A stretch of DNA of 64,000 nucleotides from NCBI RefSeq assembly GCF_032062105.1, contig NW_026939565.1:62001-126000 (forward strand). Reading direction: 5' to 3'. Positions within the stretch are counted from its first letter, which is position 1. Each line of letters opens with the position of its first letter. This document shows, in pieces, positions 11,106 through 58,643 of the stretch. The notes under the pieces are model-generated. The model had not been told where the DNA came from. It ran no database searches and saw only the letters and a program-made list of their open reading frames with translations. The position numbers and the translations under genes are program-made. The stretch comes from Saccostrea cucullata (taxonomy: Eukaryota).

Positions 11106-11239
11106 GGAGAACACTGTCGAGAGCTTGTCATGTTAACATTAACATGCACGATGTTTTATCATACATTTTGTATGAATTTTAACTGCACTATATATACATT
11201 TTAATTACTGGTATATAGCATGTATATAGAATTTGTTTT

Positions 11240-11370
11240 GATTATATACTATGTATATATATATGAATTTTATACTATGTATTTATATGAATTTTATACT
11301 ATGTATATATATATATATGAATTTTATACTGTGTATATATATATATGAATTTTATACTATGTATATAGAA
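11240..11370. repeat. AT-rich minisatellite (ATGAATTTTATACTATGTATATAT unit with variable TA tract) in the putative 3' UTR
   Basis: Four to five units visible directly. Confidence 0.85.
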
Positions 11371-12858
11371 CACAATTTAATTATATAATATATATAATGA
11401 TTGTATTTTAATTAGATACTTAGTGTCTAAAAATCTTGATTATATACTATGTATATGTTTATCAATACTATTATATTTTATCCATATAGCAATGTGTTTC
11501 ATGCCTACTAAATTATTTTTAATCTTGTTGTTTTGCGTTTTGAACAATCATGCAATAAGTTTAAGAATTCTGTTTGTTTGGTCTTTCACTTTTGAGAAAA
11601 TTTCCTGCATTTTTTAAATTCACTTGTAGCTTAGAACCACATAATTTTTAATAACTTATACGATGTCAGCTGTTTTAAAGTTTCTTAACATATATTTTTA
11701 GATTTCATATACTTTGAAGTATTCAAGTATTTTTGTTTTTAAAAAATAAGCTGGTGACTTTGTGAATACTTTGTTTTATTTGCAATAAACAGCGGGGAAA
11801 CAGTAGGCGTTGTATTTGTTTATTCATTCCAAATGTATTCTTGGATTAAATTTTGTATTGCATGTTTAAATTTATAAAAAAAAAAAGAAGTCAAAAGATA
11901 TTTGTAAAAAAAGTTTAAAGATTGAGGATAACATAACATTTTTATAATCATTAACAATTCATTTTTTTTTTAATGAAGCCTTTTGAATACACTGTGTCTT
12001 TACTTTAAAAATAGTCGCTTTTTTAAAATCATGCATTAAAACTACCAATTCTTTCCCAAATGTAATATTAAAATCAAGGACATTATAATTAACTGCGCGT
12101 CTGCTTCCTTATCAATGTGCATTGATGCAGTTTATCAGTCTTGAAAGCAGAAATAGTTTAAAATAAATGCAAAGTTACAAGATTCAAAAGATAAATGATC
12201 TGTATCTTACACTTTACACGGTTCTTTTGAAAAAAAAAATAGGTAATCCTCTTTTATAAAAAAAAATCCCCAATATTTTCCATGCAAAATAGTTTGATAA
12301 AAATCAAAGAATTTCTGTCTTGAAAACTGTAAGAAATTACAGGAATTTTACAGAAATAAGGAAAAATTTTCTTTTGTTTAACTTCTTATTTTTACACCCA
12401 CAATCTGTTTAAAATGCGTTTGCTCTGCTCCTATTTTGTATTGTTTAATGGAGTTTTGATCTTGAATACTGTTCGTTATCTCCGTATATTTGACTTAAAC
12501 TCTTTAAATAAAAAGCAGTTTACATAATTTGATATTTTTTTTGTAAAAGGTTGAATTACCAGACTAAGAGTTTCCGCATGATAGAGAAGTGCAAAATATT
12601 TTGATAAAAATATTTCCTTAAAACAAATAGATAGGAAATAATTAATAAAATATGTAATTAAACACTAAAAGGAACCATTGAAACAATATGCTTCATCAAA
12701 AAAATGCCGGTAATAACCTTCTAAGTTTGACCAGAGAATAGTGAATTCTATAACAAAGCTAACAGGAATAGTTTTCTAAACAGGAAACAAAAATTACCTT
12801 TAAAAAAACTTCACACCTTCATTTATTCTGTAGACAATTGAGCTGCTTAGAACTGATA

Positions 12859-26572: not shown

Positions 26573-28003
26573 ATGTCGTCAAGATGTGCATTGAATGCTT
26601 TAAGCCTCTTCATTTCAGCATTAATGGTTATTTCCAGTAATGGCCAGAGCCAATTTGCTTCAGTTTTGCACGATTCTTTGTTCAAAGGTAACTACACACC
26701 TTATATTCATCCTCACGTTAACTGTGGTAAGAATGCTACTTATGTAACGATCGATCTTGGCTTGCGAGAAATTGTGGATTTATCCGAAAAACAAGAGACC
26801 ATTAAACTGAAGATTTGGGTAAGACTTAACTGGAAGGACTGCAACTTCGTCTGGAATTCTTCTAAATTTAAAGGAATTTCGCAGATAGGACTCCCGTATG
26901 ACAAACTCTGGGTTCCAGATGTGACCTTATATGAAAGTATTGATGATATTGCAAACATGCCGGATATGAAACAGTACAGAGCCTTGATAACAAACACAGG
27001 AGCCATTCAATATCAGTTTCCAACAACAGTACACGTGACATGCGGAATGAATATTTCCATGTTCCCATACGATCAGCAAATGTGTACTCTAACATTTGGT
27101 TCATGGATTCATTCAAACAGCGAAATAGAGATGTTCAGTAAATCTGAAAGCGGAGATCTCTCTTCCTTTGTCAACCACCAAGAGTGGATCGTCGTTAGTC
27201 TAAAAGCAACTAAGCTGACAGAACTATACACGTGTTGTAAAGAACCTTTCTCCAGCATTTCCTATAAACTGGTGATAAAACGCAAGGCCACCTTCTACAT
27301 AATCACAATGATTTTGCCTTTCTTTGCACTCACTATATTATCTATTGCTGGGTTCATCTTGCCATCCGCCTCTGGAGAAAAAATAGACTTCCACATGAAC
27401 ATTCTTTTAGCAGTCACAGTCTATTTGCTCCTCATTCAGAACTCACTGCCCGCATCGTCTGAGTTCTTTCCAAAAATCGGAATCTACTTCATTATTACCC
27501 TCCTTTTAATTTGTTTGTCCTGCGTGATGTCAGCAATCGTAGTATACCTGTTCTACCATGATCTCGGTGGGAAACAGATGCCCAAATGGGTCAAAAGAGT
27601 TTTGGTGGATGGACTAGGTCGACTGATGTTCATCACACAAGACAATGTGATACGCTTCAAAGCTCAACAATCTTGTGAAAAGGAACCAGCAGAAAAGAAA
27701 TTGGAGGACATGAAAAGACCAAAGGTCAAAAAGAGTAGGAAGATTGTAAAGCCAGCAGTTTTATGTGAAATTCAGAACGCTGTTTATGAAGGCTGGGAAA
27801 GCGAAGTAGGAAAGGTACGTCCGCGAGACCCTAATAGTGTGGGCTTCTGGGAAACCGAAAGGTCCAACAAAAAGATGAATGAGTGGGAATTGCTGGCCTA
27901 TATATTGGATAGATTCTTTACCGTTCTTTATACTATTGCCGTATTCCTTAATACGGTTGCCTTTCTTATTGTCTTTAGTCAAAATGATGCACCCTCAACT
28001 TAA
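26573..28003 (+). CDS. nAChR-like alpha-type subunit, single-exon CDS (copy 3)
   Basis: 476-aa ORF with Cys-loop, YTCCKEP, GEKIDFHMN and four TM segments. Confidence 0.95.
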   Translation: MSSRCALNALSLFISALMVISSNGQSQFASVLHDSLFKGNYTPYIHPHVNCGKNATYVTIDLGLREIVDLSEKQETIKLKIWVRLNWKDCNFVWNSSKFKGISQIGLPYDKLWVPDVTLYESIDDIANMPDMKQYRALITNTGAIQYQFPTTVHVTCGMNISMFPYDQQMCTLTFGSWIHSNSEIEMFSKSESGDLSSFVNHQEWIVVSLKATKLTELYTCCKEPFSSISYKLVIKRKATFYIITMILPFFALTILSIAGFILPSASGEKIDFHMNILLAVTVYLLLIQNSLPASSEFFPKIGIYFIITLLLICLSCVMSAIVVYLFYHDLGGKQMPKWVKRVLVDGLGRLMFITQDNVIRFKAQQSCEKEPAEKKLEDMKRPKVKKSRKIVKPAVLCEIQNAVYEGWESEVGKVRPRDPNSVGFWETERSNKKMNEWELLAYILDRFFTVLYTIAVFLNTVAFLIVFSQNDAPST

Positions 28004-28929: not shown

Positions 28930-29570
28930 CAAGATTACTAGTAATTGAAAACTGACCAAAACTGTAGGAGGAATAGCACTCTGAAAGTATTTCAAAATTT
29001 TTCTCTACTTTTAGTAATCATGGCAATCAAAAAACCGATATACAGAATTATGAATCCAAGTGAAGTCTACTTGGATGCTAAATTATATTGAAATCAGACC
29101 TAAACTGTAGGAGTAGCATTCTGAAAATAATTCAAAGAAATTTCTTTTTCTAGTAACCATGGCCACACCATTCATAGAATATATAGAATTGTGTTCCTTG
29201 TTGTAGTATACTTGTGTGTAAACTTATATTGAATTCAGGCCCAAAATGTAAAAGGAGTAGCATTTTGAAATATGTCGCAGAAATTTCTGTTTTTAGTAAC
29301 CATGGCAACACCGTTCATCGACATCTAATACCGATAAAGTGAATGACGAATCTTACGGTTTTCAACGTGTGTGCCAACTTATATTGAAATCAGATCAAAT
29401 CTGTTGAAAGGGTAGCATTTTGCAAATATTTCAAAGAATTTTCTTTTTTAGTACACTATATACGCAACACTGTTCATTCATATCAAAAACTGATTAACAA
29501 AATCATATATCTCAGTGTAGTCTTCTTTTATGCAAAGTTATATTGAAATCAGACAAAAACTGTAGGAGGG
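28930..29570. repeat. Degenerate ~135-145 bp tandem array (Helentron-associated type)
   Basis: Recurring TAGTAACCATGGCAAC ... TATATTGAAATCAGACC ... AACTGTAGGAG..TAGCATT, about 4-5 units. Confidence 0.7.
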
Positions 29571-32365
29571 GTCTTCGTCCAGTAGAGCTTAAAATGTGCA
29601 ACTTCTTTTTATTCCATAAAACAATATTGACTGGCAAAATTCAAAACTTTTACAGAAGAAATAAAATAACACTATTATTAATTCGTTTGTTTTTTTTAAT
29701 ACTCAATGTGACATCTAGTAAACAAAGATAAAAATCAGTAGAGTAAAGAATTTTCTATGGGGAGAAGCATGCTGTTTTAAAATAAAAAGTTTCCAATTAA
29801 TTACCTTTGGTAACAAGTCAGCAACAGTATGAAAGTGATAGTCAAATTTGAAAAAAGCGCATCACTTTAATAACATTGAAAAGCCAATGGAAGAACATGG
29901 CCTTAAACTAATGGTGGAACACGTTCTGTGTTAGTTATAGTTAAGATTTGTAGCAATTTTTGTCAGGATTTCACTTCTTGATTAAAACATAACAAATAAA
30001 AACTGTAACAAGCTGAGAACATAATAATAAAAACAATACATATATATGTGTAAAACAAATCTATTGTCTCTCTTAATAATTAAACTGAGGCCAACACTAC
30101 ATATAATGCAATGAGGAATGAAAATACTAAAGCCATCCGGCAAGCATTTCTGCGCCATTTATATTAGTAATAATGAGAAATTACAAGACACAATGAATTT
30201 GATTTGACTTGGATACAAGCAAAATGATGTCAATATCACAAAGTACGAAGCAATCTAAAAACAAACATGTTAACTGTACACGGCAGACTTAGGCTCGAGA
30301 TTCAGTTCCCCGAATTTTACATATATATGTCCATCAACCTCTACAATGTACAGAAACCCTCTTCCAACTCTTTCTAAAGGATACATGTATGTTCAACGGT
30401 AACTCCCAAAGGACTAAAAAAGAATCCTTATACATTGCTGCTATGCATAATCCACTATAAAAAATTTCAAGCATTTTTACATTTCATTTTTGAGATTGAA
30501 AAACTGGAAATTTATAAAATTTAAGGGCTAGTTCCAATATTATAATCAACAATATACAAGTTTATTTTTCTATGCTGCAAAAATTTACTATTTATGTTAC
30601 AAATCTTAAATATTCTATTGAAATTGACTAAAAAAGCACTTCTTTTCTTGAAATAAACTTTCAAAGGTGAACACATGTATGGAAAGATTCAATATCTTCC
30701 ACAAAAACTCTCTAGTTCTGTAACCCCTCGGGACTTCGGGTGAACTTTCCCTATTATGCCATAAAAATCATCAGATTTTAAATAACATACAATGTGCTCT
30801 AAAAGGTTAAAGTGTTGCTGAACCAAACACAGTGTAGCTATTTATGAGCAGTGATAAAATTCTGTGATTAAAATGACAACATTGACAGTGCATGAAATAA
30901 TCTCACAGGATATGTACATCTAAAGATACCAATTAACCGGTATATAGGAAAATATAATGACTTTGTCCAAGGAACGATGAAAAATAATCACAGCACCAAT
31001 CCATCTAGTTAATACTAATCTGATATAGAGGCCATGATGTCCAATCCTAGCACTAAGTTAATATCACAAGAAGGTGGAAAAATATCTGATTCACAGAACT
31101 CTGAAAAAGTGTTATTACACGAAAAAGTCTGTTTAAATTAAATACATTGTACAGATATAAAAGACAATACAAGGTATAAAGTCGTTTTTGCCTCTAATAT
31201 ATTTGATTCATATAAAAGACTATGACTTAAGCCATTAATTTTGCAATGGACAAATTTAAGTAGGGTTACAATGAAGATGAGTGATAAAAAATGCTTTGTG
31301 GTTGAGAATTGAACACAGTGAAATTTGTATCAGAGAAAATTTGTAATTTTTTTTTGAATAAGTAAAAAGCTAATGCAATGTATCAAAAATTGTTTGGCTG
31401 TTTCAAAACTTTATTGTTTCCTATCAATTCATGGTAGTATACAAAAGTACCTTTTTTCACTAAAAGCAGTTTCATTGGGAAAGAGAAATTTGATAATGAT
31501 ATATTTCTTTAAAATTAAATTTCAATGTTCTAAGACTCAAAAGGTGAAAGAATACATATGTAAAATACCATGCACAAACATTTTCTTACATCAATGATTT
31601 AATTGACATAATATTTTTGAACATCCTACTCCCAAAAAACAAAAATTTAACTGGAGAAATAAGAAGAATGATTACAATAAAAAATAATAATACTAATAAA
31701 TATGAATAGGTACACACAAATGTTGAAGCTGCCAAAGTAAATTCTACTTTCTTCTAAAATTCAAAAATTTTTCAATGTACAAGAACACATGTGAAAAGGG
31801 AAAAGATACAGTTACCTTTAAATTTCTAGTTTTCAATATATGGGTATAATCTTTAATTAAAGTGACACTTTCCTTGCAGCATCAACTATAACCTTACCCT
31901 TTCTTAAACCTTCAAAAATAATCTGTACCCTTACAAACAACCTTTTCAAAAATTTTAACAACCATGCTTTGTGGTCCTGCTTCCATCAAAAACAATTTTC
32001 ATTACAGCAGAAAATTTCCCCAAATATTATGAAAGTAGTTTGAAAAATCTAATTACTACACAAAAGTAAAGTATAGCATTGAGATCTGATAAATTATGTG
32101 ACTCTAAAACATTGAAAAGAAATTTAGAGTGTATACATCGTTAAGACAAATTTGGGATCATATACAAGTCCTGTGCTGTGAAATTTTGCTTGGCTCTTTG
32201 ACATTTAAAGTAACTACATCAACAATAGAATAACTAAAGGAAAAAATTACCAACATAAACAAACACAATAAAGTTTTATCACAAAATAATTGTTGAATAA
32301 ATACTGAAAAATCAATCTGCAGGATCCGTCTGTCTTTTTAATACCGTCATTTTGGTGACAAAAAA

Positions 32366-35300
32366 TTATGTGCTGCCACCTTGTGGACGCAGACTGTCTA
32401 AAATGGATCTCAGGATGTTTTCAACTGTAAAAGAAAATAAAACCTAAATTAGAACTATAAATATTCATCAATACAACACTGTAAAATAAATTTTACGATG
32501 GTATGCACATTTTACAGCCATTTTAAATCTCTTCCAGTTTATAAGTCAAATTCACAAAGGCCAGAAAAAATGGATATTTACAAATCATTTTATAGTATTT
32601 CTAATAATTCTTACAAAAAGTTTCATTTTTTAAGACAAGTTTTTTTATACATCTGGGTTGCACAGGAAGAATTTCAATGGATTGTTTATGTCACAGATTA
32701 TTCATATAGATGTAAATATTAGATCTATATACCTTTATTCATAACTCTTCCTTTTTTTAATTGCTTAATTAAATATCACTTCCTAGAGATTATGGATACA
32801 AACATGCATAACCAGAACAGAAATGTTCTACCTTCCTTAAAAATATGATTTTTATCTGGAGCAGTTTACAAGTTAAAAAGATGCAGACAAAAAGGCAATT
32901 AAAATATGAATTAATGGACAAAAAAATTTGACCGTAGGTGACTTTTTTAATAATGAAAAAATGGTGTGGCATTTTGTATATGATGCATTATTCCTAAAAA
33001 AAGGTCGATTTAGTTTGTTAGGTGTTCTATGAAAAGGGAATCATAATAATACAAGCACAGTAAGTCTTTCGAAGGAAGTCAGAGGAGCATATTGCAAAAA
33101 CAAAATTAAAAAAAAAAGAAATATTTCCTGTGTGATTTTTCTTTCAATTCTTATTCTTTTTAACCGCTTACAAAACATTTTTCCCTTCTCTGAAATTTCA
33201 ATCAACAGGAACACAATAAATGAATAAGCTGTTATATATTACATTGTAAAAAGCATTAACGACTTTAATTAACAGGACACATAGGTCCTCATAGCAAAGC
33301 AGTAACAGGAAAGTGTAGATGTCTTTTATAATACATGTACTAATATTTCCTCATTTGGTTAGGTTCCTTTGAAACATCTGTGAAAGAAACATGTGGTCAA
33401 CATTGCTATGGAGCATTTGCATTTTATTTATCTTAACACCTTTGAATGTTTCAAGTGTTAATCAGAACATCTCACTGTTATACAAGACTTTGTTTGGAGG
33501 TGACTACATACCAACTCTTCACCCTCACTGTAGTGAAAATGCCATGAACGTAACAATTGATGTTGGCCTGCGAGAAATCGTGGAATTATCTGAGAAAAAT
33601 GAGGCCATTAAACTCAAAATTTGGGTCAGGCTTATATGGAATGACTGTAACTTTGTATGGAATGCTTCAGAATTTGGTGGAATTTCTGAAATAGGAGTAC
33701 CGTATGACAAACTCTGGATCCCAGATGTGACTTTGTTTGAAGGTATTGATGATATTGCAAACATGCCGGATATGAAACAATACAGGGCCTTGATAACAAA
33801 CACAGGAGAAATTCAGTACCACTTTCCAACAACAGTGCACATGACATGTGGAATGAATATTTCTATGTTCCCATACGATCATCAATTGTGTACTATGACA
33901 TTTGGTTCATGGATACATTCAAACAGGTATATAGAGATGTTCAGCAAATCAGATAATGGGGATCTCACTTCCTTTGTCAACCACCAAGAATGGATAGTGG
34001 TCAGTCTAAAAGCCGCTAAAAGGATCAATGCATACATCTCCCGTAAAGACCCCTTCTCCAGTGTTTCCTACAAACTGGAGATAAAACGCAAGGCCACCTT
34101 CTACATAATCACCATGATTTTGCCTTTCTTTGCCCTTACTATATTATCCATTGCCGGATTCTTTTTGCCATCCATCTCTGGAGAAAAAATAACATTCCAC
34201 ATGAACATTCTTCTGGCAGTCACCGTCTTCTTGCTTGTCATCCAGGATACACTACCGTCATCTTCTGAATTCTTTCCCAAAATAGGAATCTACTTTCTAA
34301 TCACCCTTCTGCTCACCTGTCTGTCCTGTGTGATGTCTGCCATAGTTCTGCACTTGTTCTACCACGACTTCAGTGGTCAACAGGTGCCAGAGTGGGCCAG
34401 TCTAATTCTGATTGAGAAACTTGGTCGCCTGATGGGCATGAAACAACATTATCTTCATCCTGCCCAATCTCATGAAAGTAGTCTTAAAGAAAGAAGCGAG
34501 GAACTGGCTGAAAGAAGCAGTGTGATTCCCACAAACAAAAGCAAAAAGAATAGAAAGAGTATCAAGTCACTCTACTCTCAGGCCTTTGAGAATTCTGTCT
34601 ATGACAATTGGGAAAAGGGTGAAGTTCAGGGACAAGACCAAAAGAGAACTAGTTTCCAGGAAACGGACAAGTCTGCATCCTCTGAAGCCAGGAAGAAACT
34701 GAACGAGTGGGAAATGCTGGCCTATACATTGGATCGATTCTTTACCGTTTTCTATGTTTTTGTTACAACTATTAACACTATTGCTTTCCTTATTGTAATG
34801 AGTGAAAATGATAATTAGCAAATCAGTTAAAACAAGATTTTGGAGGAAATATATTCCCAAGGGGAAGAGAATTGTAATTGTGTCATATATTGCCTTTTTG
34901 TACTATAGAAACAAAATCTTTCTAGTAAATCAAATTTCAGCACAATATACATGTAGGAAAGTAATGCGTCATATTTAAAAGAAATATAAAACAAATCAAA
35001 AAATATTTTCATGTGGACAAAGATTTGTGGTTTGTTAAAAAAAATATAGTTTGAGAATTGCTTTCACGGTTAAATATTTGCTGGGTAAAATTATCTTTGT
35101 AAATTTTACATTTATATTTCATGGTCCCCATACCTTGAAAACAATAAAAATTAAGCCCATTTAAAAAAATCCTTGAAAAAAGTCTTAAAATATTCTTATG
35201 TTTATCAAGTGTTTATTTGATACAATGAATTTATTCTTTGAAATGAGTGTACATGCTGTAGTTGTGCCACTGACGCCATTAAACCTGAATAACAATTCAT

Positions 35301-38300
35301 GTGTGCAGATTTTTCTGAATTTTAAATTAATTATGTTTTCAGCAATTATGATAACTCTCTTTCATTCATTTATTTTTTTAATGTAATTTTGAACTTTACA
35401 GTTGTAAACAGCACACAGACAATAACACTTAATTAATGATATGTTACAGTAAAACACATGTTGTTAACAGTGCTATGGATGAACAATTCTGATTTGTAAT
35501 CATGTAATTCTGATAATGAAATCTTAAAGTGCTTTAATGTTAGTATACAATGTGTTTAGTGTACATGTATCTATCAATTATTGTATAAACACTACACTGC
35601 GAAGTATCAGAGATCTTAGATATGTAAAAACTTAAAAGATACTGGAATTACACTTCTAGTCAAATTTATAAAGCCCATACTGAGCATTTCCAAAAAATTA
35701 TGCATGCATGAATTTATCATTACCGGTACTTTTTTTATTTTATACTGATCTGTTTTAGAATACATGCATTTTATCACAGTGTTTTTTTCCTTGTTCAAAT
35801 AAATCTATACATTACCTAAAGACTGAGTTCTCTGATAAGCATGGATAAAGCAGTGTAACAAGGAGACATAATGAAAGCTCTACCTTGTAATTGGTCATTA
35901 CCCTGTGAGGAAGGATTGCTCCCCTGACCGCCCAGTATAACAATACTAGGGGGCTGTGCTGGGGCAGGGTTTGGCACAAAGTTATTAGCTGAGGAGGGCT
36001 GGGGTTGTTGACCCAGAGTCGGGGCAGCAGCAGGTGGTGGGTTACAGATGATGATCTGGGGTACATTCTGCTGCTGTTGCTGTTGTTGAAGCTGTGGCTG
36101 TTGCACATTTAGATCTAAAATCATAAAATGTTTATAATTACTTTGAAGTTTCTTTCAGTAAAAAAAATGCTAGATGATTTGGTTTAAATGAAATGTGTGC
36201 ACAGTTTTGAGGTCTGGCATTGTATCAGTAAACTGCAAAGATTGCCTTACTATGTGTGGGAATAGAACTGCTGTTTATAAGCTGGGGCTGTGGAACAGAC
36301 ATTTGAACCTTCATTTCAGGGGCCGATTCTCCAGTCATCGATGTGATGGTATGGAGAGGAACATTCATGTTCCTCAGAAGAGTCTGTGTGATGGACGTAT
36401 TTACACCACTGTTAGCAATCCCTGCTAGTCCAATCCCTTGACTGAGGTTGAAGCTCTGCTGGCCACTTTGTATAAAGCTGTTATGAGTCTGGAAGGAGGA
36501 GGTTGTCGGGAAGCTAGCGGGAGAGCTGACTCTGTTGGACTGGATGGAAGCTAGATGTGTGGCCAGTAGCTGAGCTATACTGGAGGAGGCCTGGTAGTTG
36601 TTCTGTGAGAACTGAGGAGCCACCTCTGGTGCGGGGGTGTGGGGCTGCTCATGGATCTCATGGTGGTTCCATTTCTCCTGAAAAATATGAATGTTACATA
36701 CATTGTGTATGTTTAAAAAAAAAATTCTTTGGTAATGTGCAAATTGAAAATATTAAATATTTATAAGAATTCAAACTTTATGTTATCTGGAAATTTTAAA
36801 GAGGGGTTCTTCAAGTGTATATTTTTCCTGTATATTGTTATAAAGTTCATTTTCTTTACAGAAATTTCACAAGGATTTCAATGTCTTAGGTACTCACATT
36901 CAGGATAGCTTCAGCCATTTTGTCTATGTTTTCTGGGTGATCCTTTTTGGCATCTTGTAAAATATTTGCAAAGTCATGTGAAACATCTAGAATATTGGCA
37001 TGGGAATTAAATGAATTTGAACCATTGGATGCCAAAGAGGTGTTACTGTTCTGTCGGCTAAGTTGTCTTGATGGTTGTGTGCTTGTTACCGTGGTTCCAC
37101 CATAATGACTAGAGTTGATTTCATGTGTATTTGTGTTCATACCTCCTAGTTTTACATTAGAATTAAGACCGGCATTAAGTATTTTATCCACATCAATTTG
37201 CGAGACACTTAAGTTTGCCTGGGATACAAGGTTGTTCATATTAAGCCCAAACCCTTGCTGTTGATTTCCATTTCTCACATGATCTGGGATACTATGTACT
37301 CCATGCTGTTGCATTGTGGGAGTTGTTCCTTGAATCATGGGACTTTGCACTTGCTGGTGCATGACTTGATTCCCTTGTTGCAGAATGCTGTCAATGGCTT
37401 CTTGTTTGCTTACCACCACTTGCTGGAAGATAGCACTCTCTAGGCTAACAGGAGGACTCATTATGGAAACAGGGGTGTGAATCACCTGTTGATTGAGGTC
37501 TCCCATTGACAGAGAGCTAGCCATGTTACCAGAATGCTGCATCAACTGTGACTGAACAAGATTTTCTTTTGTGTCCATGTTCTGCTGGGCGTTCATAGGA
37601 GAGGCATCCACCTGCATCTTCATGTCCATGTTGAGGGTCCCTGGGGGCAGCTGGAACATTCCTGATCCATTCTCTGTTTGTTGTTGTGTCTGTTGAATTT
37701 GATTATTCAGCTCCAAGGCCTCTGTGAAATGAACGGCATTGAAAATTAAGAAACGAAACCAAAACAACTTTACTTCAGAAATTTCAATAAAAAAAACTCA
37801 TTTAAACTTCAGAAGATGGCCATCTTTACCTGGAGAAATTGTAAATGAAACTCTACGCTTTTGGAACGTGTCTGTCTCCATCGGTGTTTCATGCTGTTTC
37901 CGAGGGGTAGTTGGAGCTTGTTGTACAACTATAAGTATTCATTATCAAAGATTAGATATTTATAACTTAGTGACATCTAAGACACTTTCAACTGACTATA
38001 TCCATGTCTAAAGGAACAAAAACAAAAAAAAATTTTCATGCAGTATATGAGTATCAGCTGAGAATGATAGAATTATTTGACCTCTAACATTAATTATACA
38101 CAGAGAGAGAGTACACTGGGAGACCCATGAAATGTCAGGACCATTGTGTAGTCATAGGATGACATGTTTCATACCAGACAAGGTTAGGACACTCAGAGCA
38201 CAATCACACCGTTCTACATTAAGCTACAAGTTTTGAATTTTGATGACATTCAAACAAAAACACTCAACATGTCATCCATTGTACAGATGCACAGTTGTGA

Positions 38301-47300: not shown

Positions 47301-50300
47301 AAAAAGGCACATATTAATATTATTGATTACAGACTCTTTGTTGTACCATTTGTTCATAAAATATACTGAAATTTCAATTCCACTGAGATGAGTAAATAGA
47401 TGTATTGTCAAAAGACATTAATTTTATGTAAAAAAAATTACAGGACTGTACATCACTTTTTATTCGCAAGAATTTTATTTTCGCATTATTACTTTCTAAG
47501 ATGTTGTTTAAAAATTAAAATCTAATGGCAAAACAGAAAGTGTCAACTTTAATATAAAGGACTGAGCATTATGCAACAACTTTCCAGTCATTGAATTTGA
47601 TTCATATTTTAAGCCAGATGCTATGGCATTCACAATTTTGAAAGAGAATCATAACTATTAACAGTTGCTTTTCAAAAAATGCTTTTCAACTAATCAGTAA
47701 TATTCAGCAATAATCAGTAGTGTCCCTACCACACATGAACCCCTGACCCTTAGGCCTAGCTCCACACATTGCACAATTTTTGTACAGGCATTATTGCTTT
47801 TCAAAAATATTTGATTAATACCAAGGAGCAGGTTTCAAACAATTCATTATATATTATATTTTCAGTATATACATACAGCCCCCCTCTATGGAACCCCTGA
47901 CCCTGGGGCCTTGAAATTCACAATTCTGGAAGATTATCATAACTATATAGGTTATATAGTTCATTCTGCTTAATACCCAGGAGCAAAGAAGAAATTTATC
48001 AAAGATTTCATGCATTTGCACTATATAATTAACACCAGAATCCCTGACTGGGGCCATAAAATTTATAATTTTTAAAGAGTGCTCATCATAACTACATAGG
48101 TAGTTCATCTGCTTAATACCCAGGAGCAAAGAAGAAATTTTTCAAAGATTTAATGTATTTTCACTATATAATCAAAAGAGCCCCGCCCTAACACCAGAAC
48201 TCCTGACCCTGGGGCCATAAAATTCATAATTTTGGTAGAGGCACTCTTGCTCATCATAACTATGCACGTAGTCGGTTTATTTAATACCTAGGAGCAGAGA
48301 AGAAGATTTTCAAAGAATTCAATCATGTATTTTCACTATATAATCAATAGAGCCCCACCCTAACACCAGAACCCCTGACCCTGGGGCCATAAAATTCACA
48401 AATTTGGTAGAGGCACTCTTTTTCATCATAACTATGCATTTACTTAGTTTATTTAATACCCAGGAGCAGAGAAGAAGATTTTCAAAGAATTCATGTATTT
48501 TCACTATATATCAATTTGACCCTGGGGCCATAAAATTCAAAATAGAGGCACTCTTGTTCATCATAACTATGTACTTAGTTAGTTTATTTAATATTTTTTT
48601 CATGTATTTTCACTATACATAACTAACACCAGAACCCCTGACCAGACAATTTTGGTAAAGGCACTCTTGCACATCATAACTATGCACTTAGTATTAAAGT
48701 TTATTTTATACCCAGGAGCAGAAAAGATTTTCAAGGAATTCATGTAGTTTCACTATATAATCAATAGAGCCCCGCCCTAACACCAGAAACCCTGACCCTG
48801 GGGCCATAAAATTCACAATTTTGGTAGAGGCACTCTTGCTCATCATAACTATGTACTTAGTTGGTTTATTTAATGCCCAGGAGCCAAAGAAATAATGCAT
48901 TTTCACTATATACTTATTTAGCCCCGCCCTAGCACTAGAACCCCTGACCCCAGGGTCATGAATTTCACAATTTTGGTAGAGGACTCGGTGCTGATTACAA
49001 TCATGCAAACAGTTTGACTGCTTGATGTCCAGGAGTAAAGAAGAAGATTTTTTAAGATTACATTAATTTTAGTGGTTTTCAGGGATCATGAAATTCACAA
49101 ACACCCATAGATGCTTTGTGCTAAATTTGGTTGAAATTGGTTCAGTGGTTGCAGAGAAGAAGCTGAAAATGTTCAAATGTTAACGCACAACGCACGACGA
49201 CGGACGAAAACAGATAGCAATAGGTCACCTGAGTTTACTCAGGTGACCTAAAAATTATGCTTAAATCGTCATTTGGCTTATGAGAATTATCCCATTGGTT
49301 CCAGACACCTGTATGGCAGTCAACCCTGCAAAATGGAGATTAATTATAAAATTATAATCAATACACAATACTTTATTTCATTACAGGTTGGCTTTTTCTA
49401 AACAGGATATGCAGCTGATGAATAAATCAGTCTAATGTAATGTCTCAAAATGCTTCTGAATCAAGCATGAAGTGATAGCTAAGCTGTTGAAAAATCTGTG
49501 TTTTTGTCACTGATACAGACCTGGAAAACAGTAAATCAAGTGACACAGCATAAATAAATGTATTTTACCAATTTCTTTGCATGTTAACTCTGCTGATTCA
49601 ATGCATATAAATAGTAATTTTTTTAACTGCTCAGACATTTTTATAAACAGCAAATGAAGATCACAAGAAGATCTTTCCTTGGACATGTTGGATGAAAACA
49701 ATTGAAATATTATACCGGTACACAGATTATTCATAATTCCTTTAAATTCTTTCGAATGTATTTGGGAAATTCCTGTAGAATGACTGAAAAACTGTTCAGG
49801 TCGAACACATTTTTCCTGTTTGTAAAATGAAATGACAATTGTTCTCTTGCCAAGTTACTGCCCATGTGGGGCTTAATATTCAAGATCAAACCTGATCCAT
49901 CAACTTTAGTCTGGATATTCATTTAGAAAAACATTTCATTTGAAAAATCCAAAAATTATTAATATTATGTATCCATATTTGCACCATTCTAAAGTATAAC
50001 AAATCTAATCATTATTTTCTATCCTCTTATTTTAGCTCTCTTAAGAATTGCAAATTGATGTGTTTACATGTAAAGGCTCGCTATGATGGGCTCTATCCTT
50101 ATAAAAAAAGAATATTTTCTGGTTTTTTTGGGATGACAAATCCCATTGTGTATCCTTTCTACCGGGGCTAGTGAATTTTTAGGGTTGGGCAAGTGAAATT
50201 TTAACTGACAAGTAAAAAGTCTCTCACTTGCACCGTGGTAAATTAAGTAAGATATTAACAAAATATAACATAATCAATTATCAAAACTAATATATCAATA

Positions 50301-53300
50301 TCTATGCCAATATTCTACGCCTATGTAGTATTTTTTATATATAAATCATATATAAAAATACATATAAAATTTAATGGTAGGGCAGGCAAAAATTCAGGTA
50401 GGGCAAGTGAATTTTGACCATGTACTTGCCCTTGGTCAAGTGCCTTAAAAATCTATTTGTCAGCCCCTGATTTTTACGAGGCATACACCTTGAATAATAA
50501 CTGAATTTATACTATTCCTATGAAAGTTTTGGAAGAATTTTCCTGTGCATTCAGGAGGAAAATAAGCTTCCTGAAGTGTTACCCTTGTTAAGGGGATCCT
50601 TCTGACAAACAGACATTGGCCAACATCTTATACTGTGTTCACTCTAACCAATCAACAGCAAATCCCCATCCTTTAGCATTATCTCAAGAATTAAAACCTT
50701 GGCAATGGTAATGATGATGGATTTTTATGCAGATAATTATTATTTCCAAGAAATATCTTTAATAAAACATCTGCACATTTTAGGGTATGATTACCTCATT
50801 TTAATTCAAATCATTTATAAGACCAGAAAGAGGTTTAAATGTGCCAGGCCCACCAGTCGATTTAATAACACTGTCAAACAGTAACAAATTAGGCATTATG
50901 ACCTGTGTGTACAAACATATTTCTCGATCTGTTCCTTTTCACTAAATCAAACAAAGTTTTTATAAAAATTTAAAACAGAATGAAATGAAATACAAGGTCA
51001 ATCACTCATACAAACAGAAATCAGTGACCTATAACACGTGGGAGAGAGTTGTCCTGCAACAAACCTATTGACCAAATTTGGTCACTCTGACACACTTTTA
51101 ATACACAATGTCATAACATTACGAAGCTTAGATCAAGAGATCAACCAAACTCAATGATAACAATACCACCTTGTCGGCCCATAGTACACTGGTGACCAAG
51201 CTAGTGGACATGTACTTAACCAATAAATCATGATAATTGACCTCTTTCTACTGTGAAATTTAACGGTGTTGCAATCTTAATGGTTTATAGTCACTCAAAG
51301 GTTGATGTCACATCATTTTTATCTTGAGCCAAATTTATCACAGCAACATCTGTAAGCTGACATAACCTAACTTTGGCAGCAACTATGAACTATCTCTGTC
51401 ATTTTGTTCTTGACTATTACCAGTAGATCAGAAGTACATGTACTTGCCACAGTGAGTTCATGTGTCATTGGACTGACTTCATTTGCTTTGCAGATAACAG
51501 CTGTGAAGAATTAGGGCCAACACTTTCTAGGTTAAGAATTTATGTCTGCTTGCAACTTCTTGCTGTTCTATTTCATGCTTGACTTCTTATTACTAGGATT
51601 ACAAATGGGATTCCCATATAAAATTTAGCTTCTGTTCATTCAGAAACAATAACTAGCGCTTTAAATTGAAGCATATATTCGTGTGCTATCTTGTGTAAGC
51701 ATTGATTATTTTATACTGTTGTATGTCTTCTCTCAAAAAGGAAGTTATAAATATGCCGCATTATGCAAATCCGTTTACTGAAATGTTTATACATGGCATC
51801 TCTTACAACCTATTGTTCCTACAACATAGAAGATTACTGCACTGTATAGGTGTTTCAACCATCTGCGTCACATACTGATTTTAAATCGCATTTGTCTGTG
51901 CCAGTTATGAACAATGACCCAGATAGCCTATCCTTCTTTTCACCCCACTGACCAAGATAAAAAAAACGGTAAACACTGCGTATTAAAATACTAAGCATAT
52001 ACTATGAATATGGGCCAAGATCTATTTTTGAAACATTTGGGTCACTGTTAAAACACTGCGCTAAAATCAATTTCAATTCCTAATGTTAATCAATTGAATG
52101 GAGTTTTGATCAGTGCACTAGCTTTTAAAACCTGTCTGGTTTGAGCACGTCTTCAAAGATCTTATCAGATGAAAAACCCTCGGTTGTCAGAAAACATTCA
52201 GAAAAATAAAAAAAATAACATGAACTTTTCAACCTATGAATATTATCTGTAGACAAAATAAAGACCATTAATGAAAAAACTGCATACAAATGAGTCTCTC
52301 AATGCAATCACAGCTAGCAGACAATTTTATTAGGCTATGCAAAACATCGAGATAAACATCTTCAAGTGCATTTGAGGACTAGCAAATCTTACAGCTGTGC
52401 TTTACAACTCACATTCCATTATGTCTGGTATGTGTATTCTCCTCATTTCTCCCGTAGTGAACACCTCATAATGATGAGTAGGGAAAAAAATTACAAACTT
52501 TGAAGCATTTTCACAGAACACTTTAAAAGAGTAATTTCAATTTTCCTCCTATCACTAGAATCAACTACAAGTTTTCTAAATGATGATTAACACATACTAC
52601 TCATCTTCATTACTGATAGATCACCCATAGGCCGAGAAAGAAGCCAGGTCACTGGGCATAGTTCTGTTTGATCTTTCCATGTTTACAGCACACTACTGTT
52701 TGCAGAACATGGAACATGGAGGAGGATACTTATTAGTTAGTATTGACCTTGGAGCAGAGAACGCCAACACTGCACATATACCTTGTATCACTTAACCAAA
52801 TTTTCTCTGCCAAATACAATACTGACGAAAGCCTTGTTACTGGGTAACACACGGCTTCTGCCATATTTAACCGACACGTGAATTCCGTGCTCAGAAAAAG
52901 CAAACTCAGGAATAAAAGTAGATGATCCGCGGGTACAGAAACGCAAAAGAATCACCAGTGTGTCATTGGACAAAAGTCGAATAAACCGTGATGAAGCTCA
53001 GAGCGACTCTGTCCCAAGTTCTCTCTATACTTTGGCATTTGAAGTTCAATAAACACACTTCAGCACAAAGGATCAATGACTCCGTGCATGTTTATCGAAC
53101 TCTCTCGATTGATATTGCAGACCTTGAGGGCAACAAACAATATCTTATCTGGTTTCTGAGGTACATTCAAAACAATATCATTTGGTGTTTTGTCATTTTT
53201 TCTCTCTCAGAAAAAGATGCTACACTCTTTCCTCTATTTTATATTACATTAAGAGGCCCATAGGCTACAACACTAACCTGAACTATCAAAATTTGGAGAA

Positions 53301-56300
53301 GAGAATTACAAAAACAAGAAACAGATCTTGTTTTCATTAACTTAATAAAAAAATGGCCAATTTTTAAATAAAAAATCAAATTAATTTTTCAATCTACTAA
53401 AACTATGGTGCCCAAAACAATATCAGGGTCACTTGGAAACATATTATGCCAAGACATAACTTCACAATATTCTTTTCAATTACTAGAGATATTTTTTAAT
53501 TTAATTTTAGAAATAATAAAAATTTCTACTAGTTTACAAATTTGCTGTTATTTCTAAAATCAAGGTAACATTTTCACTTGGTATTCCTACAATACACATA
53601 TTTTTAAATTACACTAATTTAAAATAATGAAGATTTTAATTCAAAATTGCATAGGATTTAAAAAAAAAAAAGTTCCTTATAGATTAAAAGAAGTTGGAAA
53701 AGAAATCCCATGATCAGAAAAAAAAAGAGAGAATAAACTGAGAAACAACAGCTACTAAAAAAATCAACAAATAAAATGGGCGTATTTCACTCAAGTACAT
53801 GTAATATGTTACCTTCAAAATTACTATTTAAAAAAAAACAAGACCAAAAAAAAATTTCTAGACATCCTAGAATAAAAGAATGCTTAAAATTTCTATTTAT
53901 TGGTATTTAATAAGCCTCAAAATTTTAATGTAAAAAAAATGATACTTGCCCTATCAAAAAAGTATTCAGTATGTCTTTATCATTAGAGAGACACAGCCCA
54001 TAGCCATGCAGCAGGGCAGAAGACCAAAGGCCGACAGCTGATAGAGAGAGAGGAAATTCTGTTATTGGTGGAGCTATCATTGAACCTATTCAAATACTGC
54101 CTGATAACGAATCTGTAACAACCAACAAACACACAAGTACATACAGTGCACCTCACATCATTTTATTTCACCTCAATCCAAATCAATCAAAAATTTTTCT
54201 AACGTTTCATTCACCGACTCTGAAATTCGAGTTCATTCAGTGACACCCCACCTACAGCCATACCGACCAGCATAAACACTCTGAATCAAATTAAATGTAA
54301 TCGATTTTTCTCCCTGCATTCATTGATTTTTTTTTTAAAAAGTTCTTCTTTTGTGTTATGTAATACAGGTCCCTGTCTGAGAGAAGACAAATATTGTCTA
54401 CCTTATACAACACTAAATCCCCAGGAACTATTCATTTTCTATACTTCTCAGACAAAATGTTGTACTGTCACCCACAGCACATTCATTTAGCCTGCAGACA
54501 CAGTGTATTATATCATCATATACCATCTCATATTAACAACAGCCCTTTAAATCTTTCAAATTCAAGAAAACCTACTCTGCACCTTTTATCTGCCATACAG
54601 AAATGGTATAAAAAATCTGAGTGGATTGCATCACGAACAAGGATGTTTAATCTCTAGAGAAGGCACAACAACAAACTATTAAAACATACATAATTAGACA
54701 AACTATATTTAATTTCCTCTTTCTACAACAGCTGGTCTGCCATGATTTCAGTCCCTAATGAGCACTTCTATCACAAGGAGGAGTTCTGTATCATTCTGAT
54801 AACATTGGTCTGTACATATGTTATATACATGTACTATACTTTGTATGCAGAACAAATCAGGATTCTGATCAAATTCTTCATTGAAGGGAAAAAACACAAA
54901 GATTAAACCAAAAGCAGCATGCTGATAATTAACATGACATCATTTCGTTTAAAAAAAAAACATCCTTTAGATTTCCAGGCAACATTACGTTTAAATGTCC
55001 CTCAAATGTAAAACCATCTATATTTCTTATCACTGCATGAGGACACCCCTCTCGGTTCACCAGCTTCTAGAATGTTCACTGTCATATGATCATCTTGCTT
55101 ATAATGTTTAGGAGATCAAAGACTTAATATTAAATCCATGCAAACTTTTGCATTGCTTGCAATTTTCACGCATTTAAGTACAAGTGCCAAACTTGCAGCA
55201 CATTATTAAATGAAAATATGTTATTTGGTTAATAATAATATATGTGCAACTTATATGAAATGCTTTCATGTCAGAGCTATTTTTACATGTGATGTGAAAA
55301 TATGAATGTCTTACTTCAACTTGGAGAGTACCTTTCTAATCATTTGATATAACATTTTAAAGCACAACAAGAATATGATATGTATTTTTAATACAAATTA
55401 CTGAATTTTTTTGTTTATCTACTTGATTGCCTTTGTCTACACATGTACCTTTCATGCCTCTCTGGGGGCCCTTAATTGGAAATAAAATATTGTCTATTTT
55501 TATTGCTGATTCAACTTAAAAAACTCTTCTCACCTAAAGATGATGGTGCTGTTGACACCCCCTCCATATTGCTTGTCACAATTCCATTCAGTGTAGAGGT
55601 TCCTGAAGGAAAAGAATGTTACCACATCAGCATCACATTTACCATGTCTACTGTGTGTGTCATAATGGAAGTATGTATCACAAAAACATCAATACATTTA
55701 CAAAGGTCACCAAGCATCAAAACAACGTACCTGAACTGTTCTCTGTAATGAATATTGATGACTAATACAGCTATAGATACACATGTATATATACCAAAAT
55801 AACTGAAAATATACACTACGTGCTATATGTGCTATAAGAGACAATGCTTTAAATCCTTAATGAGTGTGTAATTATGAATTAAAATATGTTTTTAATTTGT
55901 TTCTGTACTTTACTCTCTCTCCCAGTGGGATACAGATTCAATTCTGGATACATGTTTATCCTTATTCAATAAAATGTCAGCAAAATGCCATGATGTGCTT
56001 GTACACGACTGGTTCCAATACCATGGTCTATAATTACAACTTTATATATGTAAGATACCGTCTCCAATATTATTTTGTTATGCATGTACATGTAGAGTCA
56101 GATTTATATGTTCCTGTTTTAAATGTATTCCTATTTATATATAAAAATATTCATTCTCACACCTAGCATACACTGAAATACTTATCTCCTAAGCATTAAA
56201 TCGTCATGCAAAGTGATAAATTGCGAGACCAACTTAAATTTGTACAAGTCTATACAGTCTATACCAGCACAATAAAATAATGTCTAGTGTATTAGAGTCA

Positions 56301-58643
56301 TGTGATTCTTAATGAAAACATTATCATTCATCATGTCCTAATGTGTACCTTCCAGATTGCATGGTCTTCTTTAACTCATGTTTGTCAATGACAGTATCCT
56401 TTAAAATACAGATATATAGTCATAAATTATCCTCCGTTCTATCAATAAATCAATAATATTTGCCAGTGAAATGTGTAGAAATTAAAAAAATTTGATTTAT
56501 TTTAACACACATTGATCTATGCATTTACATTTTCACAGTGCACTTTTATATATAAAGCACTGATTAAATGCCAATAGACTTGTATGTCACTAACAGCTCT
56601 CTGCATTGGTACTAATTGTGCTGACTATATAAAGTCTGTCAGAACTGTCATACACACTAACAGTTCTGCTAAATATATATGAACATTGATTGATTGCATA
56701 AAATATTTCTTCCATTCTCCTCTTTAACCATTCCTAAAAAAAATAATGATACCCAGTTTCAAACATCTACAGTGCCATATAAATTTGCAACTAAAACATG
56801 CAATGCTTTTAATTAAAACCTGGGTATCCAATGACCAGTCATACAGTATGGTGAACCTTTAAGTAATATTGAGGTCACATGCCACAGGTGCAGAGTAACA
56901 ATTAATCTGACATGCTTGTCTTGGTGGGGGATTAGATAAGTTCACCGATATTCCTCCAGCCTTGCCCCTTTACTCACCTTTACCCCCCCCCCCTTTGGGG
57001 ACCCCTACTCACCTGAGACACGTGCCCCACTACTGGTCCCCAGTAAACCATTGAGTAAGTTGGACTGATTCCCTGGAAGGTCCATCTTCTCTTCTGAAAT
57101 TCAAAAGAGCTATACTCATTGGTGTTCAAATGTCAGAATGTACCGGTCAGTTCTGGTCCTGAATCACTAAATTTACCTACATAGCATTGGTCACCTACCT
57201 GAAGTAGCTTTATTTAGCTACCAATGCAAACATTATTTCTTTTGAATTATCATTTTTCTCAGCATGTACAGAAAATCACAATTTGGTGCAATGATAATTT
57301 TCAGCTTTAAACTCATCTGAAAACAATTCATGAAGAAATCACTCTTGAAAATGTGACTTTCTCTGCACATTGCAATCAAAGTTAGAATTGAGGCTATAAA
57401 CAACAGTTAATTTAGGATCAAACAGTTACTTCTTGAATGAAATGACAAAGAAAACCTGTGAGTTCTGGTTAACATGATAATGGATTGGCAATTATTCAAC
57501 ACAATTTGAAGTGATCATACTTTAATATCAACACCTCACCGAACAATGTGGTGGACAGTTACTCAAACAAATTGAAATACATGTACATCTTTTGCTCAAA
57601 AGTGTTCAAACACAGCAATGTTTGAACTATCTCTGCCTTAATGGATTGTATCTTTAAGACCCCTCTCTACACTGCACACTAAAGAGTTCTCTTTCTATGG
57701 TATTTTTCTGAGTTAGAGTGATCTGCCCTTAGATCTAAATTCTAAAAAATAGAAATTTACAGTATATTACTCAATTTGTAATTAATTCAAGTATTCTAAA
57801 AATCTTCACATTTTAAAATGCCAAGATAAATTAATTGAACATGTTATTTACATGTATTGTCTATATGGAAGTAAACAACAGTGATTTTTATTCACTGATA
57901 CTGTGTTGTCTTTGAATATTTTTCCCTAGGGTAAATGCCACGCACCATACAGTGAAAATTACCAGTAAATAAATATTAAAATAAGCTGAATATTAACTCT
58001 TTTATATAATATATTTTTCTCAATGTCCAAAAAAGATTTTGCACTGGTGTAGAGAGGGTCCTTAATATCCCTAGTATAAATATTAGAAAATATGTCTTAT
58101 TTCTCTTCATTCTTTGCTTACTTTGAAGCTCATTATTACCACCTAAGCTTTGCATCATATTTAGGCATCTTGTCATAATTAAGACTGAATGATACATAGC
58201 TCTCTGATTGGCTGAAATCCAACTGTCCAGAAATCATAATGCAAACTTCACCTGCCTATGACCTTCCAAGTGAACATTATATTGATTTTTAGATGAGGTC
58301 TCGTGACTCCATTAGGCCTCTATTATTTTAGAGTGACATCAAAAATTGCTTGTTCGAATATCATATGACATTTTAAAATCATATTTTAAAGGGGAAGTTT
58401 TGATAATTTATAGATGAATTTTTTGGCTATACACTGAACACATCCCTATCCAGTACTAACTTCATATTTCCAGACTGAGTCGGGAGAGGACATGCAAACA
58501 TTTTTTCTAAAGTTGGCCCAATGCAATTATATATAGTAATGAAGGGATATTTGAACAATTTTAAATTATTTTAAGCAACATATTAAGCAAAATATGGCCA
58601 ATGTTCAGGTAAGATTTCCAGAGTTACCTTTTTTGGCAGGCAT
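32366..58643 (-). CDS. NFAT5: NFAT5/TonEBP-like Rel-homology transcription factor (multi-exon)
   Basis: Phase-consistent exons: 58628-58643 (MPAKK), 57013-57093, 55534-55602, 46356-47271, 45829-46108 ([20 protein letters not shown]), 45271-45461 ([19 protein letters not shown]), 43855-44027 ([12 protein letters not shown]), 43466-43665 and 43029-43152 (IPT: [22 protein letters not shown]), 37830-37928, 36898-37721, 36251-36677, 35884/35902-36114 (Gln-rich), 32366-32424 (stop). The RHD/IPT identity is secure; the terminal exons are less certain. Confidence 0.9.
33391..34818 (+). CDS. nAChR-like non-alpha subunit, single-exon CDS (copy 4; vicinal CC absent), antisense within the predicted last NFAT5 intron
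   Basis: 475-aa intact ORF. The Cys-loop is retained; loop C reads AYISRKDPF instead of LYTCCEEPF. Confidence 0.94.
   Translation: MWSTLLWSICILFILTPLNVSSVNQNISLLYKTLFGGDYIPTLHPHCSENAMNVTIDVGLREIVELSEKNEAIKLKIWVRLIWNDCNFVWNASEFGGISEIGVPYDKLWIPDVTLFEGIDDIANMPDMKQYRALITNTGEIQYHFPTTVHMTCGMNISMFPYDHQLCTMTFGSWIHSNRYIEMFSKSDNGDLTSFVNHQEWIVVSLKAAKRINAYISRKDPFSSVSYKLEIKRKATFYIITMILPFFALTILSIAGFFLPSISGEKITFHMNILLAVTVFLLVIQDTLPSSSEFFPKIGIYFLITLLLTCLSCVMSAIVLHLFYHDFSGQQVPEWASLILIEKLGRLMGMKQHYLHPAQSHESSLKERSEELAERSSVIPTNKSKKNRKSIKSLYSQAFENSVYDNWEKGEVQGQDQKRTSFQETDKSASSEARKKLNEWEMLAYTLDRFFTVFYVFVTTINTIAFLIVMSENDN
38563..39216. mobile_element. MITE with 27-bp TIR (GG...CC ends) and 8-bp TSD AAAGCAAG; Merlin- or Mutator-like
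   Basis: TIR GGT(T/G)TGTTCCCGTTTTGCACACATTTG. TSD at 38555-38562 and 39217-39224. Internal tandem duplication with 83-bp period (38909-39068). Confidence 0.85.
39737..39948. mobile_element. Short TACTGTA...TACAGTA MITE rich in TCGCGA motifs
   Basis: TACTGTAGATCACTT / AAGTGATTTACAGTA termini. Related fragments at ~45594 and ~47444. Confidence 0.75.
39968..40791. mobile_element. hAT-type MITE (TAGGGCTGGG TIR, 8-bp TSD CTTTTTAC) containing nested hairpin cassette B
   Basis: TSD at 39960-39967 and 40792-40799. Subterminal ATATCGCAAT repeats. Confidence 0.88.
40251..40669. mobile_element. Hairpin cassette B: spacer bounded by 13-bp inverted repeats plus a 160-bp hairpin (40510-40669)
   Basis: ATATTTACATTTG (40251) / CAAATGTAAATAT (40498). 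Hairpin TAAGTAATAAGG...CCTTATTTCTTA with GCCCTTCGGGC tip. Confidence 0.75.
44757..45111. mobile_element. Hairpin cassette C: 156-bp hairpin (44757-44912) plus inverted-repeat-bounded spacer
   Basis: TAAGGAATGAAGC...GCTTCATTCCTTA with CCGCGAAGCGG tip. Spacer bounded by TATAATGTAATTT / AAATTAAATTATA and homologous (inverted) to 17288-17578. Confidence 0.78.
47720..49253 (+). repeat. ~165-170 bp satellite-like array inside a Helentron/HINE-type element
   Basis: About 8 diverged units (AACCCCTGACCCTGGGGCCATAAAATTCACAATTTTGGTAGAGGCAC), then GACG repeats and a 3' hairpin AGGTCACCTGAGT-TT-ACTCAGGTGACCT followed by an A-run. Confidence 0.85.
50130..50469. mobile_element. Decayed MITE (GGG.TGACAAAT / ATTTGTCAGCCCCTG ends, GGGCAAGTG motifs)
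   Basis: Partial terminal inverted repeat; no clean TSD. Confidence 0.4.

Follow-up and report, generated by a model that had tools for sequence, protein, structure and literature searches.

The window analysed here, a stretch of 64,000 nucleotides from the oyster Saccostrea cucullata (NCBI RefSeq assembly GCF_032062105.1, contig NW_026939565.1, positions 62,001 to 126,000 of the forward strand), carries on its minus strand the gene for the transcription factor NFAT5, with a coding span from 57085 to 32366, and on its plus strand four intronless frames for receptors of the Cys-loop type, numbered here copies 1 to 4. Copy 4 is nested antisense in a real, spliced intron of NFAT5, the last one of the gene. 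The identity of the host follows from its Rel homology domain, which is closest to NFAT5 proteins (57-59% to vertebrate NFAT5). The RefSeq protein P0024, labelled as NFAT5-like of S. cucullata, matches the exons of the window at 98-100% (single-exon hits), and the gene is single-copy in the assembly (one match). The nested locus consists of the following features:

29690..32365, minus strand: NFAT5 3' untranslated region (3'UTR), at least 2.7 kb (contigs 29690-31331 and 31482-32424 in runs X2 and X5; 29866-30425 in run X3)
32366..32424, minus strand: last coding exon of NFAT5, 19 codons and the stop, with the conserved C-terminal motif (sequence, RNA, protein comparison)
32425..35901, minus strand: last intron of NFAT5, 3,477 bp, phase 1, GT-AG, host of copy 4 (joint in four of four runs)
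33391..34818, plus strand: copy 4, intronless subunit of the nicotinic-receptor type, 475 amino acids, non-alpha, with GEK between transmembrane helices M1 and M2 (frame, Pfam, alignment)
35734..35818, minus strand: read-through stop (35816-35818) and AATAAA (35739), a possible intronic end (sequence; low unstranded cover in the bin 35132-35795)
35884..36114, minus strand: Gln-rich penultimate exon of NFAT5, with donors after 35902 (RNA) and after 35884 (protein models)

The NFAT5 exon at 35902-36114 is followed by two donors, after 35902 (GTAATG) and after 35884 (GTAGAG), and the acceptor at 32424 joins either of them in frame, giving a C-terminal stretch of 19 protein letters. The joint 32424-35902 is found in all four of the RNA runs analysed (from four studies), with 3,477 bp skipped and GT-AG on the minus strand; in every run it sits on the main NFAT5 contig, and the contigs carrying it continue through the upstream NFAT5 exons. 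These data represent four of the 24 listed runs, as assembled, unstranded contigs, of which X3 is RNA on record and the other three are RNA by guess, though spliced. The coding sequence of copy 4 (33391-34818, plus strand) lies wholly within the intron thus removed. The names given to the genes in the initial annotation, the nesting, the two donors and the non-alpha assignment are all supported, by the sequence, the RNA joint, Pfam and the missing loop-C cysteines, and reads do join the 32366-32424 exon, the absence of which that annotation had named as the observation that would speak against it. Of the two junctions it expected, 35902-32424 was recovered as described, while 35884 is not among the 15 joints listed, of 85 in the RNA contigs, though this donor is used by P0024 (from this contig), by P0023 (S. 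echinata, isoform X1) and by the Logan proteins P0027 and P0034; protein P0015 uses the donor at 35902.

The RNA differs from the exons of the window by about 4-7% (10/213, 44/823 and 45/651), compared with 1.9% for the likely haplotig C8644, and therefore probably comes from a close relative of the source of the window. Almost no RNA covers the bin 32476-33139, and because the RNA is diverged, this gap in cover is unusable as a control. Pieces of contigs cover 33173-34749, the region of copy 4, some part of it in each of the four runs; as the contigs carry no strand, a messenger of copy 4's own is indistinguishable here from unspliced NFAT5, and its expression is implied by purifying selection.

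Copy 4 as a receptor gene

Copy 4 possesses an intact frame of 475 codons, matching PF02931 (E 8e-46) and PF02932 (E 2e-29), that encodes a ligand-binding domain with a 13-residue Cys-loop and four transmembrane helices, the hallmarks of a Cys-loop subunit. Its best matches among solved structures are the nicotinic subunits alpha-3 and alpha-7, with which it shares the Cys-loop, the tryptophans of loops B and D, the first loop-C tyrosine, the cation-type GEK linker between M1 and M2, and the four helices. It differs from the vertebrate subunits in a Ser-Arg that replaces the loop-C cysteine pair and in phenylalanines at the loop-A and second loop-C tyrosines, while throughout the receptor clade His and Asn occupy the M2 positions at which alpha-7 carries Gly and Thr. 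The cysteine pair that marks nicotinic alpha subunits, absent in copy 4, is present in the other 12 of the 13 clade rows, and because these keep it, the non-alpha state of copy 4 is a derived loss. Despite database names of the 'alpha-9/10-like' kind, no vertebrate subunit is orthologous to copy 4.

Copy 4 shows 66-68% identity to copies 1-3, with a ratio of nonsynonymous to synonymous substitution (dN/dS) of 0.22-0.28 overall and of 0.03-0.08 in M1-M3 (Nei-Gojobori), and with dS of 0.8-0.9; it is therefore a constrained gene under purifying selection. In the trees, copies 1-3 form with three S. echinata proteins a clade that excludes copy 4 (support 99/99). Approximately unbiased (AU) tests reject the grouping of copy 4 with copy 3 (p 0.03) and with copies 1-2 (p 0.024), and are compatible with more than one placement relative to the Ostrea genes (p 0.12 and 0.46). 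A protein of C. gigas/angulata, P0185, was considered as an ortholog of the copy 4 clade and rejected; it groups with the gene nested in a TBC-domain host described below. Copy 4 itself is found neither in the protein collection, by exact look-up, nor in the homolog list, while copies 1-3 are present there, and no S. echinata ortholog occurs among the listed homologs. Copy 4 is possibly unannotated owing to its nesting, and it presents a clean, RNA-confirmed example of a nested gene of the kind that annotation may miss.

The receptors of the window belong to a described type, the intronless tandem nicotinic receptors expanded in oysters and other bivalves (Jiao et al., 2019; PMC6896357, main text), with which they share the single coding exon, the tandem array, the ligand-binding and transmembrane domains, the altered binding residues and the mixture of alpha and non-alpha members (33 of 132 being alpha in C. 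gigas). The words 'nested', 'NFAT' and 'antisense' are absent from the main text of that paper, which covers C. gigas, and no named C. gigas member of the copy 4 clade was found. A retroposed origin has been argued there for the intronless class (PMC6896357, main text). Copy 4 is intronless and so are its direct relatives, and for this reason a move at the DNA level fits copy 4 as well as retroposition does; survival of a poly(A) remnant and a target-site duplication at dS of 0.8-0.9 is unlikely.

Relatives nested in other hosts

Copy 4 has at least 90 matches in the genome, the closest subfamily being six loci at 37% identity or more, with the haplotig C8644 excluded. Three of these six are nested, each in a different host. 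Besides copy 4, a receptor of the sister clade (L003:4397-5944, minus strand, contig C8636) lies antisense within a 3,769-bp GT-AG intron of a fucose-kinase-like gene, of which, judging from sequence alone, three plus-strand exons join with no stop. The exons on either side of the receptor match PF07959 at model positions 183-232 and 282-339, in this order, the matches being weak and below the cut-off (E 0.002 and 0.0002); host and nested receptor together span L003:3277-7772 (G000:C8636). A further related receptor (L008:2349-3824, minus strand, contig C3796) occupies, in antisense orientation, a 3,726-bp intron in a gene of the TBC/RabGAP type. The exons on either side of it can be joined in frame, this too as read from the genomic letters, and exons matching PF00566 follow 4-6 kb downstream on the same strand. 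The host region is L008:1065-5033 (G000:C3796), its intron splits the motif DKDCR/RL, and we take the gene to be TBC1D13-like. Pfam gave no match for the two TBC-side exons flanking the receptor or for the middle fucose-kinase exon, and the short TBC exons had no match in Atlas or PDB. The remaining three loci of the subfamily, not shown to be nested, are located tail to tail with a myosin-like gene, beside a lipase, and, as a four-gene array, behind a RING/B-box gene.

Ten loci of more distantly related receptors, hand-picked from the 90 matches as single-frame hits on different contigs, four of them with look-alike neighbourhoods, were surveyed over 10 kb on each side with a simple exon finder, which in controls recovered both flanking TBC exons and one of the three fucose-kinase exons. 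None of the ten is confirmed as nested, and one is a candidate (L033/L034, with TSP1-type exons on both sides); two first candidates were dropped, the neighbouring gene ending before the receptor in each. Fisher's test of the closest subfamily against the distant loci gives p of 0.036, 0.12 or 0.22, depending on the way in which the candidate and the look-alike loci enter the count. As nesting recurs in the subfamily with different hosts, a story specific to NFAT5 is not needed, and this recurrence suggests how intronless receptors have spread in bivalves. In Ostrea edulis, a single chromosome record carries four members of the clade together with the probable ortholog of the receptor nested in the fucose-kinase-like gene (P0004, P0022, P0007, P0008 and P0375), which would fit local hopping.

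A textbook nested pair is that of TIMP genes within synapsin introns, in which the host is constant across animals. In mammals, 12-17% of genes are hosts, and most of the host/nested pairs have no expression relationship, according to the available text of Montibus et al. (10.1101/2023.05.02.539096). The oyster case resembles these pairs in that a long intron contains the whole of a compact gene of the opposite strand, and departs from them in that several members of one receptor subfamily occupy different hosts and that one nested member gave rise to, or forms part of, a tandem array immediately beyond its host. Searches of the open-access literature for NFAT5 with a nested gene, nested genes in bivalves, retrogenes nested in molluscs and nested nicotinic acetylcholine receptors in Crassostrea returned no relevant report. 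Metagenome scans for synteny gave ten pattern matches, none confirmed, and a single match to the last-exon pattern, a bacterial chance match (L017).

Age of the intron and relation to the host gene

Oyster NFAT5 resembles NFAT5/TonEBP in its Rel homology domain, in its long Gln-rich C-terminal region and in a short hydrophobic motif at the very end. Of 27 mollusc or mollusc-like NFAT5 proteins, 18 have this motif, which is carried by the last exon; they are from oysters, pearl oyster, mussels, clams, a unionid, a limpet, an abalone and a pulmonate, and the nine misses include models that end earlier. In the Potamilus model P0054, the agreement with the Sinanodonta protein P0053 breaks off precisely where the motif begins, the pattern that would be expected of read-through into an intron at the same place. 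The receptor clade was found solely in Saccostrea, O. edulis and one JGI contig (8 of 14 hits), and the profile search, made on 50% representatives, may conceal more members under P0007. With the terminal motif widespread in molluscs and the receptor clade narrow, the last intron of NFAT5 probably predates the receptor clade by far. Among the 118 rows P0046-P0163, mostly vertebrate NFAT5, 75 have a similar acidic-hydrophobic motif at their end. The motif is possibly an ancient coactivator-binding helix, and the ends of the nemertean P0057 and of the amphioxus proteins P0074-76 resemble the terminal activation motif of NFATc1-4; the text examined of PMC3482241 does not address it.

We consider it probable that the nesting is passive, copy 4 having been inserted antisense into a pre-existing intron of NFAT5, from which transcript it is spliced away, and serving as a predicted non-alpha subunit of a cation channel. 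The compact receptor family would relocate as a single-exon unit and would survive in introns mainly in the antisense orientation, where the polyadenylation signals of the receptor cannot cut the host transcript. The receptor would thus have entered the older NFAT5 intron by insertion and would persist there with no regulatory tie to NFAT5, being removed from the major NFAT5 transcript. One further copy, placed beyond the 3' end of NFAT5, may then have been duplicated in tandem into copies 1-3. Copy 4 is predicted to contribute to a cation-selective pentameric channel as a complementary or structural subunit, most simply together with its alpha-type paralogs. Antisense nesting in oyster NFAT5 likely reflects the usual behavior of a mobile gene family, not a link to salt sensing.

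Several points weigh against passive nesting. The greater frequency of nesting in the closest subfamily (three of six) than in the distant loci, suggestive only given the small samples, is not what pure chance would predict; the base rates of mammalian nesting may not hold in oysters; and interference between the two genes may occur. In addition, neither a last-exon remnant nor flank homology was found that would explain how a copy passed the last exon of NFAT5: the best scores for duplicated last-exon remnants within 8000-37000 are 33 and 44 against shuffled maxima of 41 and 55, and the flanks of copy 4 resemble those of the other copies, or of the receptors nested in the other two hosts, no more closely than shuffled sequence does (12 comparisons plus six involving copy 4), with only copy 2 and copy 3 sharing flank homology above all shuffles.

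The initial annotation had proposed transcriptional coupling between a tonicity regulator and a cluster of cation channels, and on present evidence a selected unit of tonicity response, in which NFAT5 drives or co-regulates the receptors, is very improbable. The role in tonicity is that of vertebrate NFAT5/TonEBP, the tested role of mussel NFAT5 being, in the part of PMC11898675 available, immune and antioxidant; no test of the role of NFAT5 in oysters was found. In favor of coupling, a human NFAT5 with its C-terminal region replaced by the insect one still senses ionic stress (10.1101/2023.09.23.559074, available text), some oyster nicotinic receptors respond to salinity (PMC6896357 and PMC6212563, available text), and in S. 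echinata NFAT5 and three clade members share a chromosome record. Against it, sites resembling the tonicity-responsive enhancer (TonE), as defined by the vertebrate consensus, which may not be that of the oyster, number 23 in the window compared to 18.3 ± 4.7 by chance, with no excess. An NFAT5 target would be expected to carry such sites near its start, yet there are none in 32425-33390, between the last exon of NFAT5 and the start of copy 4; the upstream region of copy 3 likewise has none, and that of copy 2 has one. The relatives of copy 4 nest in hosts with no link to osmoregulation, mammalian nested pairs are mostly uncorrelated (10.1101/2023.05.02.539096, available text), no named Crassostrea or Magallana member of the clade occurs among the 14 hits, though these are euryhaline oysters, and neither NFAT nor TonEBP is mentioned in the oyster salinity paper. 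Nothing beyond position ties NFAT5 and the receptor genes together.

Local interference, by which transcription of copy 4 would make convergent polymerases favor cleavage near 35739 or read-through to 35816, leaving NFAT5 without its conserved C-terminal motif in receptor-expressing cells, is unlikely but deserves a small share of belief. The stop at 35816, which the initial annotation noted in suggesting an alternative last exon that could avoid the overlap, and the AATAAA at 35739 do exist, the sole conserved C-terminal motif sits on the last exon, low cover is seen in the bin 35132-35795 in four of four runs, and changes in host isoforms accompany nested expression in some of the mammalian pairs (10.1101/2023.05.02.539096, available text). 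However, no joint or protein among those examined supports such an exon, none of the five oyster NFAT5 proteins that reach this end of the gene (P0015, P0023, P0024, P0027 and P0034) ending in the read-through peptide; the cover is unstranded and may represent the 3'UTR of copy 4, with AATAAA on the plus strand at 35143 and 35798; and the spliced joint is on the main NFAT5 contig in every run. If interference did operate, it would present a natural switch for this short conserved motif. A broader proposal, that the subfamily spreads antisense into introns of unrelated, broadly transcribed genes (NFAT5, fucose kinase, TBC RabGAP), exploiting open chromatin, and at NFAT5 acts in addition as a cell-type switch removing a C-terminal motif conserved from molluscs to vertebrates, appears improbable.

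As to the order of events, the initial annotation had suggested copy 4 as the founding insertion, and the intron as the founding site is somewhat favored. Copy 4 falls outside the clade of copies 1-3 and is kept apart from them by the AU tests, as already described, which agrees with that suggestion, while its cysteine loss is derived and the order in the tree is silent as to which position was occupied first. The founder may instead have settled just beyond the 3' end of NFAT5, copy 4 entering the intron later by local duplication or move, a history that we regard as possible though doubtful. It would be consistent with the subfamily member at C15828:38591-39901, tail to tail with the myosin-like gene, beyond which no further host exon was found, with the cysteine pair kept in all three S. 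echinata and four O. edulis proteins, and with the latitude that the AU tests leave for copy 4 relative to the Ostrea genes. The position of copy 4 outside the clade of copies 1-3 speaks against it, as do the single-copy gene of the sister clade, itself nested in an intron, and the lack of a duplicated last-exon remnant to the right of copy 4, which dS of 0.8-0.9 could have erased.

Surroundings of the nested locus

The remaining features of the window are as follows:

12859..14304, plus strand: copy 1, alpha-type intronless receptor, 92% identical to copy 2
20223..21668, plus strand: copy 2, alpha-type intronless receptor
26573..28003, plus strand: copy 3, alpha-type intronless receptor, tail to tail with the 3' end of NFAT5
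36251..57085, minus strand: remaining coding exons of NFAT5 as far as the start at 57085 (tblastn of P0024, joints)
43029-46110, minus strand: exons of the NFAT5 Rel homology domain (Pfam PF00554 and PF16179)

Copies 1-3 are thus confirmed to lie beyond the 3' end of NFAT5, as initially described. The 3'UTR contigs of NFAT5 extend down to 29690, leaving approximately 1.7 kb to copy 3, which ends at 28003. Between them, at 28944-29572, is a tandem-like repeat of very high, multi-mapping RNA depth, which hides the true 3' end of NFAT5. To the left of the window, at L014:1592-4900, a UBC-like gene on the plus strand, presumably AKTIP-like, ends before the window begins, and copies 1-3 are therefore intergenic.

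Within NFAT5, the 5.1-kb intron after the Rel domain (37929-43028, minus strand) is covered by long contigs in four of four runs, and its spliced joint is also present. Among 11 Logan proteins from another oyster (the P0016 cluster), 7 have C-termini similar to the read-through peptide of this intron, with VSLKTSF shared, which points to a conserved retained intron or a short NFAT5 isoform without the Gln-rich C-terminal region; a literature search found no match to either by title or start of abstract. Upstream of NFAT5, at 60347-63025, a frame with a THAP domain and a frame for a DDE_Tnp_4 transposase make up a Harbinger-like element. Finally, L001 (G000:C8644:1-5797) is 98.1% identical to 10051-15852 of the window, copy 1 included, and C8644 is probably an uncollapsed haplotig.

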